A DNA stretch of 64,000 nt from Octopus vulgaris. Lineage: Eukaryota. Location: positions 114,018,001-114,082,000 of the forward strand of contig OX597816.1 in NCBI GenBank assembly GCA_951406725.2, given 5' to 3'. A program made the translations under genes and the position numbers. Below the pieces are notes generated by a model. It was given only the letters and a program-made list of their open reading frames with translations. It ran no database searches and was not told the origin of the DNA. Every line of letters starts with the position of its first letter. Position 1 is the stretch's first letter. Of this stretch, positions 2,410 to 54,130 are shown piece after piece.

Positions 2410-2622
2410 TGAGTATATAATGTTGATTCGCTAGCTTCTGCACGCATTTTTTTCTCTCCTTGTTTCTTTCCGTGTTTCTTTTCTGTGTATCTTTCTGTTG
2501 AAGAGTGTAGGCTCAAAACGTAAAAGACTTGTTTTATTTATATTCCTGAGCGCCATACTAATACAATTGTTTGTTTGTATTCCACCTGCCTTCGTCTTTT
2601 GTTTATTTTCATAAAGCTTCCC
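2410..2622 (+). mobile_element. Non-coding repeat abutting (TA)n, carrying a decayed hammerhead; probable Penelope-like pseudo-LTR fragment
   Basis: Hammerhead-like motif at 2490-2527; ends directly at a (TA)n array. Family assignment is inference. Confidence 0.5.
2490..2527 (+). ncRNA. Degenerate type-I hammerhead ribozyme motif
   Basis: TCTTT-CTGTTGA-A-GAGT-GTAG-GCTC-AAAA-CG-TA-AAAGA: stem I TCTTT/AAAGA, stem II GAGT/GCTC, palindromic stem III ACGT. Core changes A6U and G12A (the latter CpG-type). Confidence 0.6.
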
Positions 2623-2812
2623 TATATATATATATATATATATATATATATATATATATATATATAATACATACATACATATATATATATATATATATAT
2701 ATATATATATATATATATATATATATATATATATATATATAACATATATATATATATATATATATATATATATATATATATATATATATATATATACATA
2801 CATACACATATA
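2623..2812. repeat. Interrupted (TA)n microsatellite
   Basis: Direct reading. Confidence 0.97.
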
Positions 2813-2969
2813 TGATGGGCTTCTTTTAGTTTCCATCTCTGCTATTTACAAGGCTTTGGTTAGCCTGGGGTTATAGTAGAAGACACTTGCCTGAAGTGCC
2901 ACATAGTGGAACTGAACTTAAAACCACACAGTTGGGAAGCAAGCTTCTTATCTACACAGCCATACCAGC
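2813..2969 (-). mobile_element. SINE family A, 5' half
   Basis: Matches the head half of 1202-1599. Confidence 0.8.
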
Positions 2970-3340
2970 TTTGAAGGTTATGTTTTTTAATAACATTAAA
3001 CTTTTAAATAGTTTTATCAGCTGGAAGAAATAGCAGCATTCTCTAAGAGAATAAGAACATGAATCTTATAGAATTTCATGTTTGTAAATGGCTTTCAGGC
3101 CTGGCAATTATTGTGGATTAACAACTAATTTAAAGAATTTGAATTTGCATCTTCAAGGAAAATTCAGCTGATACATATACTGGTGATGTGTATTTGCCTT
3201 TGAAACAAACCTATGACTGTGAGAATGCCAGCTGGGGAGATCAAATGAGACTTGTTCCTTTACACTTGGAGAGACCAAATCTACAAACAGCAACATATTT
3301 GTGATGTGATATTTAACTTTAAAATATATATATTTTTTTT

Positions 3341-3757
3341 TACTCCTTTACTCTTTTACTCTTTTACTTGTTTCAGTCATTTGACAGCGGTCATGCTGGA
3401 GATCCACCTTTTAGTCGAGCAAATCAACTCCAGGACTTATTTTTTGTAAGCATAGTACTTATTCTATCGGTCTCTTTTGCCGAACCGCTAAGTTACGGGG
3501 ACGTAAACACACCAGCATCGGTTGTCAAGCGATGTTGGGGGAACAAACACAGACACTCAAACATATACACACACATAAATATATATATATACATATATAC
3601 AATCGGATTCTTTCAGTTTCCATCTACCAAATCCACTCACAAGGCTTTGGTCGACCCAAGGTTATAGTAGAAGACACTTGCCCAAGGTGCCATGCAGTGG
3701 GACTGAACCCGGAACCATGTGGTTGGCAAGCAAGCTGCTTACCACATAGCCACTCCC
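3341..3757 (-). mobile_element. SINE family A, full length
   Basis: Head, internal microsatellite and repeated tail all present. Confidence 0.9.
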
Positions 3758-4166
3758 CAGTTTTGCTGCCATTCACTCATACACAATCCAAATAATGATC
3801 AAATGGAATTTGTTGAGATATAACGTGTTTATCTATTAAGATGAAAATTTTATGTACAGTTGTACAGAAAATAATATCTTAAACCTGTACATTATTCCTG
3901 ACAGATCATGCAAAAATATAACATTAATATTTTGGCAGCACTCATACATGTGAGGAACAATTTTCAAAAATGAAATACATGAAAAGCAAATTAACAATAC
4001 TCATTGGGAAACGTCGTAGTTCTGACTTCAGTCAGAGTTGAAACACTTTTGAGTGCCAAACATCGTCAATAGTCATGCTAATCATGTCCTTTACAACATT
4101 AATGTCAAGTTGAATAAAATAAACTTAAACCATATTTCTTTTGTCTTTGTTATTATTATCGTCATT

Positions 4167-50045: not shown

Positions 50046-50286
50046 ATATATATATATATATATATATATATATATATATATATATATGCATATATATATA
50101 TATGTACGTATAACATATATATATATATATATATATATATATATATGTACATATAACATATATGCATATATACATATACATATATATATATATATATGTA
50201 CATATAACATATATGCATATATACATATACATATATATATATATATATATATATATATATATATATATATATATATATATATATAT
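50045..50286. repeat. Compound (TA)n microsatellite with higher-order duplicated interruptions
   Basis: GTACATATAACATATATGCATATATACATATAC block repeated. Confidence 0.95.
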
Positions 50287-52632
50287 GCAAGCATAATAAC
50301 TTTGTACATTGTTATTTGAATTTAATTCTGTTAATTATAAACAGATTTTTCATGCTGAAATTTCCAGTGATTTGAACTTCATCACTATTGTAGGCTCCCT
50401 CTGCCACTGGGACAGGAGAGTTGCCAGATAACTGAATTTTCCAGATATCTGATCATCACTTTTTAAATTTACACAGCACCTAGCAAAACTCATTAAAATT
50501 TTCTATATACATCAGGATTATCATTAATATTTTGAATGTAGTAAAAATGCGAGACATAGAAAGAAATAAAAGAAATATTTAAGTAAAAAACGAGTTTTAT
50601 TAACCTAACAAAATTACAGGTGCTTTCAATGCAGTGAAATAAAATACTGTTCTGCACTTTAGGAAGAAATGGCCTACTCAGATACAATAGAAACTTTGTT
50701 TTAATGACAATTAACTGATGCGAATTAACAGAAAGTCTTTTGACTTTAAAAAACACCCATTTTCTGGGTGCTGATTGCTTGGGAGTTATGGTTATTTGAG
50801 TACTGTATCTATATCTTTTCAAATGTTTAAATTTTATTTTCATCAGTTACTACTACTACTACTACTACTACTACTACTACTATCTAAGGATATTATTTTG
50901 CATGCACCATGTGTATAAGGTAGATGTATGTTGACGATTATGTTAATACCTAAGTCAAAACAATTCTCAGGGCTTTAAAATTGAGTAAATTATAGTATTT
51001 ACTGTAAAATATGTTTTCATAATAGTTCTTATCAGATGAGACATGAGCTAGTTGCATGTTTACTTTAGATCAGAAATTTCAAAAGGCATTACACCAGATC
51101 TGTTGTTGCCTGCCAGTAAATATTTTTTTATTGCTTCATTTTTCAATAAATATTGTTTCACTGTGGCACTTGAATACATTCCTGCAACCTTGGCCCTTCC
51201 TTTAATCTAAAACAAAAGCATCCCAAATTATAAAAAAAAATTAACTTTCTTATAATTTTCCTACCAAGAAAGCTAGTATTTTTATCCTTATAATTTAATT
51301 AAATTCAGCATTTGCCTTAAATCATTATCTTAATGTTTGATTATGAATTTAAAAAACGAAATAAAATAAAATAACAAAAACGAAAAGATATTTTAATTTG
51401 ATTTGGATTTTTATCTTCCCAGCCCTATATTTTGAATTTGTACAGCTATAAGCAGAATTGTAACTACTTTCTAAAATATTTTTGCTCAATATGGTTTCAT
51501 TGTTTACCCACAGAGTTCTTGCAAGCAATAATTCACTTAATGTTAATTATTTAATTGGTTTTATTTTGTAATTAAATAGAAAAAAATTAACCATTAATTG
51601 CATATTTAGCAATGTTTAAAACGGTTTTCACATTTATTTATATTTCTTAAACAAATTACTTATAGAGAAATTAATTGGTTCATAAGCAGATCTGTGGGTA
51701 AATATTTATAAATTGCTATTTAGAGACTTTCACAACTTTTTTAAAAGATTGTTGTACATTTGTTAATATATTACTATTTAGTGATATCCAAAGGCAAATG
51801 AATGTGCGATATTAGAAATAGATAATCTGTTCAGGAACAGACTAGATTTTATTCACTAAGGGAAGTTTTCTAAATTACTTTTGGATTTAGAAGTTATTCA
51901 AAGAAAATTAGTATCAAGCATAAACAATTATTGGTACAATAATTGTTTTCTTGATTTGCTATTAACAAATCAAGAAAACTTAGTTAATATTTTGATGTAA
52001 TTAATGCCACTGATGTTGAAAAAGAAAAAAAATGTGAATGGTCAACAAGACTTTTAAAATTGTCTTCATCATCATCATCATCATCATCATCATCATCATC
52101 ATCACCATTTAATTTTCGTGTTCCATGGGTGGGATTTCAGACAACTTTGTATCTCCAATATAATTTGTAAGTTTTAAATGTTGCTTATTGTACTTTGGTT
52201 TAAAAAATAAAATATTCTCTATAATGTATCCTAACATGACAGTGTGATTATAGAGGAGATAACTAAAGTTTAAAATGAATAACCCGGCATATAATGTTAA
52301 TTATAATTAATCAGCTTTCTGAAGCAGTAGTTGTCAATGTAAATAGCACTAAGGTAGAGGCTGATTTTTAGTTGGGCATTTCTTGTTATTTGTTATTTTA
52401 AAGACCACAGTCTCAGTTCAGAATAAAGGAGATTAAATAACTTACCAGTAGGCTGGTTGTGATACCAGTAATGCATAGAACCAAAGAAAGTACTCAAGTA
52501 TGATAAATGTCTTGCAGGCTGGGTATAGTATGTGTGTATCATCACTTCTGTGGTGCAGTGGACAACATTTTTTTATAGTGATTTTGCCAAACCAGGTGAG
52601 ACAGTTTGTAACAATCAACTGAATCATACAAT

Positions 52633-53020
52633 ACTCTTTACTCTTTTCTCTTTTCACTTGTTTCAGTCATTTGACTGCGGCTATGCTGGGGCACTGCCTT
52701 TAGTCGAGCAAATCGACCCCAGGACTTTTTCTTTGTAAACCTAGTACTATCAGTCTCTTTTGCCAAACCACTAAGTTACAGGGACATAAACATCGGTTGT
52801 CAAGACACACAAACATACACACACACGTACATATATATATATATATACATATATACGTCGGGCTTCTTTCAGTTTCTATCTACCAAATCCACTCACAAGG
52901 CTTTGGTCGGCCCGAGGCTATAGTAGAAGACACTTGCCCAAGGTGCCACGCAGTGGGACTGAACCTGGAACCATGTGGTTCGTAAGCAAGCTACTTACCA
53001 CACAGCCACTCCTACACCTA
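52633..53020 (-). mobile_element. SINE family A, full length
   Basis: Head, internal microsatellite and tail. Confidence 0.9.
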
Positions 53021-53869
53021 TGGTTAAAATTCTTTAAAATATTACAGAATAATCTGAATTTCGTTAACTTCCAGAAATAAAGATATCTGGGATTTCCTTC
53101 AGTACATAAATTATCAGAATATGAAAGGTTTGTCTGATATTTAGTCAGCCATAAATTTGAAATTGTGCAACTCCTCTACATCTTTCAGTTGAATGTTAAC
53201 GAGACTATACTTTCTTGTCTGCTTTCTGGTGTTAGCAATAATTTTTTTAGGTTTTTTTTTTTTACCTTGATGTCTAAGTCAATGTTATTGATCATGTCTG
53301 CTTCTCCTTGATTGTGTAGACCTGATCAAAGGAATTTCAAGCATGGCAGCTCTGTCCCTTTTTTTTTCAAGAATAGTGTACTTTGGATTACATTATCCTA
53401 TGTGTCCTTTCTCAAGACAGTAGAGTGTTGTTTTGGGGAGATATAGCTGCTATTTGTAGCAGGTTGAGCAACCATGTAGAGGTTGCTGTTACTTTGTAGC
53501 TTTTATTATTGTTTTGTTTGATGATCAATCGGGATACTATTTCTATTGTAAAACTCATTACAGAAGGTCAACAACAATTGTTTGCAAACTTTATTATATG
53601 ATGGAAATCAAAGAAATTACTGCAATTATTATGTACATGCAGTGAAAACATAATAACAGACTCAAAACACAGCTGTAGCTATGTTGAGAACAATATGTGA
53701 CTTCAAAACAAAATGATTTATGATAAAGTTGGAGCCCACATGTAAATGGAATTATCCAGTCTCAAATCTTAAGGTTTCAGCACCATCCTTACGATATTAA
53801 GAAATAAGGTGTTGTCTACAAAAAAACATACATAAATAATTAATGGTGACAAAAAAACAGTATTTGTAA

Positions 53870-54130
53870 TAAAAAGCAATCTTTATTTCCAACTTTACTT
53901 GGTTGTTGAGTTAGAATACAGAATACTGCATTGTTTACCTTGAGAGGACTACTCATAGGAACTCATGGAGCATAAAAGCGCTCATATTTATATGATTGGC
54001 AGATGAGAACCATCTGCTACAGCTGCTGGAATCGTCAGATCATGTAATTTCACCCTGTTTTGGGCTCTTCAGTGACAGGAACCCAGTAGCAATATAACAC
54101 CTCCCATCAATGATTTATAAAATATCATTG
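53870..54130 (-). mobile_element. Hammerhead-bearing repeat family H, copy 2
   Basis: Homologous to 25310-25612; minus-strand AATAAA at about 53882-53887. Confidence 0.75.
54034..54076 (-). ncRNA. Type-I hammerhead ribozyme, intact core
   Basis: Minus strand GTCA-CTGAAGA-GCCC-AAAACA-GGGT-GAAA-TTACATGA-TC-TGAC: stem I GTCA/TGAC, stem II GCCC/GGGT, near-palindromic stem III, AUC triplet. Confidence 0.8.

Follow-up and report, generated by a model that had tools for sequence, protein, structure and literature searches.

A stretch of 64,000 nucleotides of the Octopus vulgaris genome (GenBank assembly GCA_951406725.2, 2.8 Gb in 227 contigs; contig OX597816.1, positions 114,018,001 to 114,082,000 of the forward strand), referred to here as the window, has been analyzed with regard to six hammerhead ribozyme motifs that a first-pass annotation had located at 2490(+), 22669(-), 25371(+), 28187(-), 32498(-) and 54034(-) and had assigned to about five repeat families. 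The window has a G+C content of 32.7% and contains abundant microsatellites. The outer end of a stem I was found at all six positions, to within 1-2 nucleotides, the six stem III strings were as described, and the sites fall into five repeat families (A-E), with those at 25371 and 54034 (hereafter A25 and A54) both belonging to family A and sharing 70% identity over 277 nucleotides. The copies are located on both strands. Each of the six sites has dispersed relatives elsewhere in the genome, with identities of 97-99% for C, 91-97% for B, mostly 85-92% for E, 72-82% for D and about 70-79% for A.

A type-I hammerhead is present in every family consensus, its elements being stems I and II, the core, GAAA, a palindromic helix III and NUH, and the two stems pair in all of them, as had been proposed. 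The core C3 U4 G5 A6 N7 G8 A9 ... G12 A13 A14 A15.1 U16.1 H17 was found in the consensus of families B and D, in that of the U4 subfamily of E, and in that of A, where positions 3 and 8 are C3-G8 or U3-A8. The CUGANGA/GAAA topology that the first-pass annotation attributed to all six motifs holds only in part for the window copies: CUGANGA is exact in two of six (22708 and 54072, both on the minus strand), the others reading CUGUUGA, CUGACAA, CUGAAGG and CCGAAGA, and GAAA is exact in three, with C, A25 and D lacking G12. A textbook core is found only in the B and A54 copies. In addition, families D and E do not carry minimal hammerheads, since their consensus stem II regions span 112 and 46 nucleotides. 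For A25, B, C, D and E, the consensus helix III is a perfect palindrome, and cofolding of the six consensus dimers predicted a double hammerhead for three (A25, B and D). Hammerheads of the dimer type known from Penelope pseudo-long terminal repeats (pseudo-LTRs) and retrozymes had been anticipated, with some families inserted in microsatellites, and three of the window copies (B, C and E) do adjoin (TA)n. An AATAAA was indeed located downstream of four of the six motifs (+19, +95, +151 and +193), but it is also present in 17% of random 130-nucleotide stretches of the window and belongs to the consensus of B and D only. As noted before, the window yielded no significant remnant of Penelope coding sequence.

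A scan of the window against Rfam revealed one Hammerhead_1 match, at 54023-54078 with 24.8 bits, below the gathering score of 34, and left the other five sites unmatched; the remaining matches were mostly microRNA models driven by microsatellites. A strict hammerhead descriptor recognized one of the six sites and gave no hits in 40 shuffles, missing the other five because it tolerates neither altered cores nor long stems II, nor an additional base or a mismatch at the base of stem II. A relaxed descriptor, tuned after the families had been seen, recovered five sites with no hits in 30 shuffles. Single window copies fold little better than shuffled sequences (z from -0.09 to -2.07) and, as folding of single copies is uninformative, the case for hammerheads rests on family consensus and covariation, the latter counted with controls in family A and judged by eye in family E.

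The family B copy (22531..22875, minus strand) is a solo 3' pseudo-LTR of a Penelope-like element that ends at (TA)n and shows 96.8% identity to the 3' end of locus L035. Its hammerhead (22669..22713, minus strand) has an intact core, a U.U at the base of stem II, a perfect 6-nucleotide palindrome and a predicted cut after position 22674; the core is intact in 27 of 30 copies. Several of the 30 family B loci reach far upstream, and reverse transcriptase and endonuclease pieces were found in all six long copies that were translated, which had been chosen from the 30 by upstream coverage. Locus L398 retains most of the open reading frame (ORF), split over two frames, with the DKG motif, reverse transcriptase motifs, a CxxxxCxxC linker and a GIY-YIG endonuclease. 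The Pfam match of the family B reverse transcriptase to RVT_1 (E 1.1e-4) is below its cut-off, the GIY-YIG match in L035 (27.6 bits) is above its cut-off, and a PDB search with the reverse transcriptase gave no match. Inverted duplicates are present at loci L394, L395 and L397. Family B is the 5'-truncated end of an element encoding a reverse transcriptase and a GIY-YIG endonuclease.

A long family B copy with reverse transcriptase and endonuclease sequence is located about 73 kb before the start of the window (L348 6998-7103, minus strand; L393). Within the window, a peptide encoded at 23153-23293 (minus strand), about 280 bp upstream of the B copy, resembles by eye the start of a Penelope-type GIY-YIG endonuclease; the likeness is unconfirmed, as the peptide had no Pfam match and no match to two endonuclease profiles, and a genome search found only the peptide itself. 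Upstream of the B ribozyme (22780-22875, minus strand), a TATA-like word and CCAAT boxes of either orientation were noted by eye, and they possibly constitute a pseudo-LTR promoter. For 22560-25700, no RNA data set was listed as containing the sequence; a short contig of depth 2 over 23112-23381, from a run that could only be guessed to be RNA, was left out of account.

The family C copy (2420..2622, plus strand) ends at (TA)n and is the 5'-truncated 3' end of a Neptune/Nematis-type Penelope-like element; it is 97-99% identical to its 39 other best matches and matches the 3' end of the element in locus L201. In L201, which includes a partial tandem, the reverse transcriptase is followed by the linker, the endonuclease (Pfam GIY-YIG match with E 3.6e-4, below the cut-off), a pyrimidine-rich untranslated region and the ribozyme. 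A reverse transcriptase or endonuclease match was located upstream on the same strand in six of 30 C loci picked by core pattern, two of the six belonging to the same tandem, and an inversion was found at L179/L180. Family C is also the 5'-truncated end of an element that encodes both proteins. The hammerhead of the window copy (2490..2527, plus strand) has U6 instead of A6, an extra A at 9a, a 4-bp stem II and an ACGU palindrome, with a predicted cut after position 2522, and is likely dead through a G12A change.

The U6 core is characteristic of the family. A 27-mer of family C with positions 6 and 7 left free had 16,332 exact matches in the genome, and the reversed control had 0. A6 was present in 180 of the 16,332, and most of the 29 A6 matches examined stood in flanks of U6 subfamilies, in the manner of sporadic changes; among the matches listed, U6 was found in 96 of 100, with all four bases at position 7. 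To escape the bias of pattern-based selection, copies that happened to fall within 273 other loci were collected (30 hits, of which 24 were full-span and unique), and three that belong to a sister family (A6, different loop II) were set aside. Of the 21 copies kept, 20 have U6. Conservation in these copies was 96% at 11 core positions versus 77% at 83 non-CpG flank positions; G12, A14 and A15.1 were invariant, while N7 (A in 9, U in 6, C in 3 and G in 3 copies) and H17 (A in 11, U in 6, G in 1, C in 1 and a gap in 2) were variable. A conserved core with free N7 and H17 would be expected under selection of the master elements for a hammerhead, and conservation also extends to stem II and most of its loop. 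The sister family (L011, L222 and L318, also L317 and L339) has a textbook A6 core and the same stem II with a different loop II, and offers the U6 variant a natural control. Extrapolated to the genome, 15 hits in 400 kb would correspond to family C fragments on the order of 100,000.

Families A and E have a different organization, in which the sequence located 3' of the ribozyme leads, over 347 bp in A and 539 bp in E, to the ribozyme again, and the longest stop-free frame in either unit does not exceed 78 amino acids. The window contains about 1.1 units of the circularly permuted, non-coding family A sequence at 25212..25604 (plus strand) and about one unit at 53834..54172 (minus strand). 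The A25 hammerhead (25371..25417, plus strand) is degenerate, with a C3.A8 mismatch and G12C, and is likely dead, whereas that of A54 (54032..54078, minus strand) keeps an intact core with five of six stem I pairs and eight of ten palindrome positions, and a predicted cut after position 54038. The family E copy (32228..32664, minus strand) comprises 0.8 of the 539-bp unit and ends at (TA)n; an inverted partial copy (32665..32825, plus strand) adjoins its 5' end and is followed by (TA)n. The E hammerhead (32499..32569, minus strand) has a 46-nucleotide stem II hairpin, a U4C change shared with a subfamily, a perfect palindrome and a predicted cut after position 32503. Of the 60 family E rows covering the site, 27 have a C at position 4; by eye, the long hairpin persists between subfamilies.

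The analysis of fetched copies (50 loci for A, 48 of them unique; 60 for E, 55 unique) revealed that 33 of 48 A loci and 18 of 55 E loci are longer than one unit, and that an inverted piece abuts the 5' end in 12 and 25 of them, respectively. The 3' ends cluster at two places per unit and the 5' ends are scattered. Most fetched copies comprise about 0.5-1.4 units, with maxima of 2.4 for A and 1.4 for E. Head-to-tail copies are present at L009, L017, L022 and L161, the first three being family A loci with two complete ribozymes in tandem; no such pair was found among the fetched E copies. Three other runs likewise have contigs with joints at the A25 site that go back 327-337 nucleotides. The pattern of 3' and 5' ends matches Penelope-style insertion (PMC8557442). 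A multimeric or circular template is suggested by the copies that exceed one unit and, with their non-coding permuted units, A and E fit animal non-LTR retrozymes and look like non-autonomous, retrozyme-like units. The proposal that all the families are non-autonomous would thus be retained for A and E but not for B and C.

Covariation in family A was counted on 45 of 56 ribozyme rows, after exclusion of 11 partial or gapped rows. Pairing was found in 86% of cells versus 27-51% in slid controls, and double changes amounted to 35 versus 17.1 in shuffles, with none of 500 shuffles as high. Positions 3 and 8 are C-G in 30 rows, U-A in 12, C-A in 7 and U-G in 2 (Fisher P 2e-5, for copies that are not independent), and the joint switch from C3-G8 to U3-A8, a variant already reported (PMC4209133; PMC3088659), marks a subfamily. 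At the foot of stem II, too, changes are found on the two sides.

The family D copy (28134..28330, minus strand) is an old repeat end, probably the 3' end of an old Penelope-like element. Its hammerhead (28187..28322, minus strand) carries A9G and G12A, besides the long stem II of the family, and is likely dead. In a few old copies the shared sequence runs linearly for about 1.6 kb upstream of the ribozyme, and inverted partial copies occur. Two candidate coding links were rejected: the endonuclease pieces near copy L099 are on the opposite strand, one of them with its own ribozyme-bearing 3' end, and the piece near copy L114 resembles the other family of the L099 piece. A TATA-like word similar to that of family B was observed by eye upstream of the D ribozyme.

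The density of motifs was compared by means of five ribozyme profiles with a random sample of 40 stretches of 10 kb over 27 contigs (400 kb). Six hits were found in the window versus 20 in the sample (3.2 per 64 kb), 15 of which correspond to family C, some of them partial or from the sister family; three hits were located in the 200 kb on either side of the window. The window is therefore about twice as dense as the sample, with a Poisson P of 0.11 for at least six hits in a comparison that favours the window, as the profiles were built from its own families. With the relaxed descriptor, the window has five hits versus 1.9 per 64 kb (P 0.05). The sample also contained two further hammerhead families (L317 2662, plus strand; L319 2369, plus strand; L323 1658, minus strand).

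Taken together, the six sites are best explained as single dispersed insertions of five retroelement families with type-I hammerhead 3' ends that are predicted to cleave as dimers only, B and C being truncated Penelope-like ends, D a probable further one of greater age, and A and E units without an ORF whose copying is likely due to Penelope proteins. A probability of about 85% has been assigned to this reading, which builds directly on the observed family structure, the reverse transcriptase and endonuclease upstream of B and C, the fixed 3' and scattered 5' ends, the inverted 5' pieces, the A and E copies beyond one unit and the covariation in A. In the proposed cycle, two ribozymes in the transcript of a tandem master would pair through the helix III palindrome and cut after NUH, freeing unit-length RNA, and A and E would be reverse-transcribed from multimeric or circular RNA. 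The GIY-YIG endonuclease would nick AT-rich or (TA)n DNA, and reverse transcription would be initiated internally on the RNA, at either of two sites, and in most cases end early, leaving fragments of the type present in the window. Family C masters would carry U6 in what is probably a slow ribozyme, apparently still selected for the hammerhead fold. The lone window copies most likely do nothing, because they have no same-family partner nearby and three of them lack G12.

Several considerations weigh against this interpretation. Cleavage, transcripts and circles are all predictions from the DNA, and the predicted consensus dimers of A54, C and E are not the double hammerhead. An element from the anole was inserted in vitro without needing its ribozyme (PMC11167929), and eight of nine frog retrozyme dimers were reported uncut (10.64898/2026.07.22.740005). 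For family C, U6 permits in the predicted fold a competing pairing of the core with the AAAC strand; an A6C hammerhead cleaved at less than 0.1 per min (PMC3088659), and in a mutational scan CUGA-turn mutants showed poor activity (PMC9901934). In family A, two of five covariation measures fell within the shuffles (152/500 and 173/500), and kinship of the copies inflates the covariation controls. Of four other element ends compared (B, C, D and F, the last described below), none matches family A or E, which leaves the helper element without a candidate among these four ends of a genome with many more such families. Finally, four attempts on family D, including tblastn, a profile search and translation of the consensus, gave no significant Penelope protein match.

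The same observations on position 6 sustain the strongest alternative for family C, according to which U6 has ended cleavage and the sequence is kept for binding by an element protein or a promoter factor. The published effects of changes at this position (PMC3088659; PMC9901934), the alternative pairing of the core, the conservation of stem II and most of its loop, and the insertion of another element without its ribozyme (PMC11167929) are all in line with such a motif, which we consider a serious competitor, somewhat short of an even chance. However, the variable sites in the 21 chance copies are exactly the hammerhead-tolerant N7 and H17, with G12, A14 and A15.1 invariant, and a U6 dimer of family C that cleaves itself is judged a little better than even. 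More tentative, and a shade more doubtful than a motif kept without cleavage, is the wider proposal that a young and very successful Penelope lineage runs on an active natural U6 core variant, together with ribozymes with stems II of 46-112 nucleotides and ORF-less circles of 347 and 539 nucleotides riding on Penelope proteins. Should the U6 core cut, U6 has to be admitted to the hammerhead consensus, and genomic ribozymes are being undercounted by motif searches based on CUGANGA; should it not, the shape of a ribozyme has been preserved without its activity in a very successful Penelope lineage. Either outcome bears on why Penelope-like elements carry hammerheads at all.

For families A and E, an origin as pseudo-LTR-derived minisatellites spread by DNA-level events, without RNA, could account for the head-to-tail copies (L009, L017, L022 and L161) and for the failure to find a helper among the four ends tested, but it is unlikely, given that the copies are dispersed on many contigs, that no fetched copy exceeds about 2.4 units, and that the clustering of 3' ends, the scatter of 5' ends and the presence of inverted 5' pieces correspond to the Penelope-like insertion pattern (PMC8557442). 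The view of the first-pass annotation that all five families are non-autonomous and ribozyme-processed agrees with the lack of a significant coding remnant within the window and with the best-matching C copies, which begin abruptly after (TA)n; it is nevertheless refuted for B and C, whose longer copies run straight into the reverse transcriptase and GIY-YIG sequences, and as a statement on all families it is very improbable. A use of the copies by the host as self-cleavage sites in a long intron, also suggested in that annotation, can hardly be sustained: the full core is kept in the B and A54 copies, but three of six copies lack G12, the copies are on both strands without a second ribozyme of their own family adjoining any of them, the density is near that of the genome sample, and no gene has been identified, with no host exon found by Pfam on 8 of 83 window ORFs. 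Furthermore, the window copies cannot partner one another because palindromes and stems I differ between families.

Other repeats were observed along with these families. An abundant family F (L204 8330-8790, minus strand; L367-L391), for which 150 of 150 scored candidates matched and which was not found in the window, encodes an endonuclease whose visible part lacks the Cys linker; a hammerhead with a long stem II and a near-palindromic helix III comes next, and the family ends near (TA)n. The window itself contains many copies of a dispersed repeat of about 400 bp, often with internal (TA)n (1200-1600, 3340-3756, 6990-7434, 7560-8390, 16945-17345 and 52630-53020), three or more related copies of a 600-850-bp repeat with 81-96% identity in parts (13474-14326, 57338-58336 and 59848-60473), an inverted repeat of 216 bp that is near-perfect (88%) and formed around (CAT)n/(ATG)n tracts (42901-43116) and, in its most G+C-rich part, a tandem array of units of about 61 bp (49544-49870). 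ORF pieces at 59361-59603 and 61187-61444 (both minus strand), without Pfam match, resemble the C-terminal part of the reverse transcriptase of an R4/Dong- or RTE-type long interspersed nuclear element.

Minimal hammerheads in the pseudo-LTRs of metazoan Penelope-like elements have been known since 2014 (Cervera and De la Pena, PMC4209133; review PMC6765202), and the class of hammerheads found at Penelope ends and in retrozymes is already known. According to the text of Fig. S3 in the 2014 work, all 56 representatives have A6 and short helices II (PMC4209133), unlike the U6 core of family C and the stem II regions of 112 and 46 nucleotides in D and E. The marks described for the Neptune/Nematis clades are a GIY-YIG endonuclease at the C terminus, a CX2-5CxxC linker, DKG, partial tandems, inverted 5' copies and microsatellite targets (Craig et al. 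2021, PMC8557442). Like these elements, families B and C show the CX2-5CxxC linker before the endonuclease in their translations, DKG in B, 5' truncation, partial tandems, inverted 5' copies and insertion at microsatellites (PMC8557442). The linker points to the Neptune or the Nematis clade, the two not being told apart.

Families A and E share with animal non-LTR retrozymes a non-coding, AT-rich sequence, a single type-I hammerhead and a head-to-tail arrangement, and the 347 bp of family A are within the reported size range of retrozymes (Cervera and De la Pena 2020, PMC7229834; Li et al. 2026, 10.64898/2026.07.22.740005). The U.U at the base of helix II in B and E is also present in the axolotl retrozyme Amex2 (10.64898/2026.07.22.740005; PMC7229834), and the two clusters of 3' ends in A and E resemble the two internal start sites of reverse transcription of the anole element (PMC11167929). 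Unlike known retrozymes, A and E copies mostly comprise about 0.5-1.4 units with Penelope-style 5' inversions and no long arrays, family E has a 539-bp unit, a long stem II and a U4C subfamily, and both families are known here from DNA alone. Lünse, Weinberg and Breaker reportedly described in 2017 dimer-cleaving hammerhead variants of Penelope-like elements with a reduced stem III, and reduced stem III and predicted dimer cleavage would be common to those variants and the window families. A natural U6 core, stems II of 46-112 nucleotides or these octopus families were not found in the literature searched, mostly at title and abstract level, and the 2017 variants may include them. Slight novelty appears to lie in the U6 core that characterizes a very large young family, in the long stems II found in D and E, and in the two retrozyme-like units with the marks of Penelope insertion.

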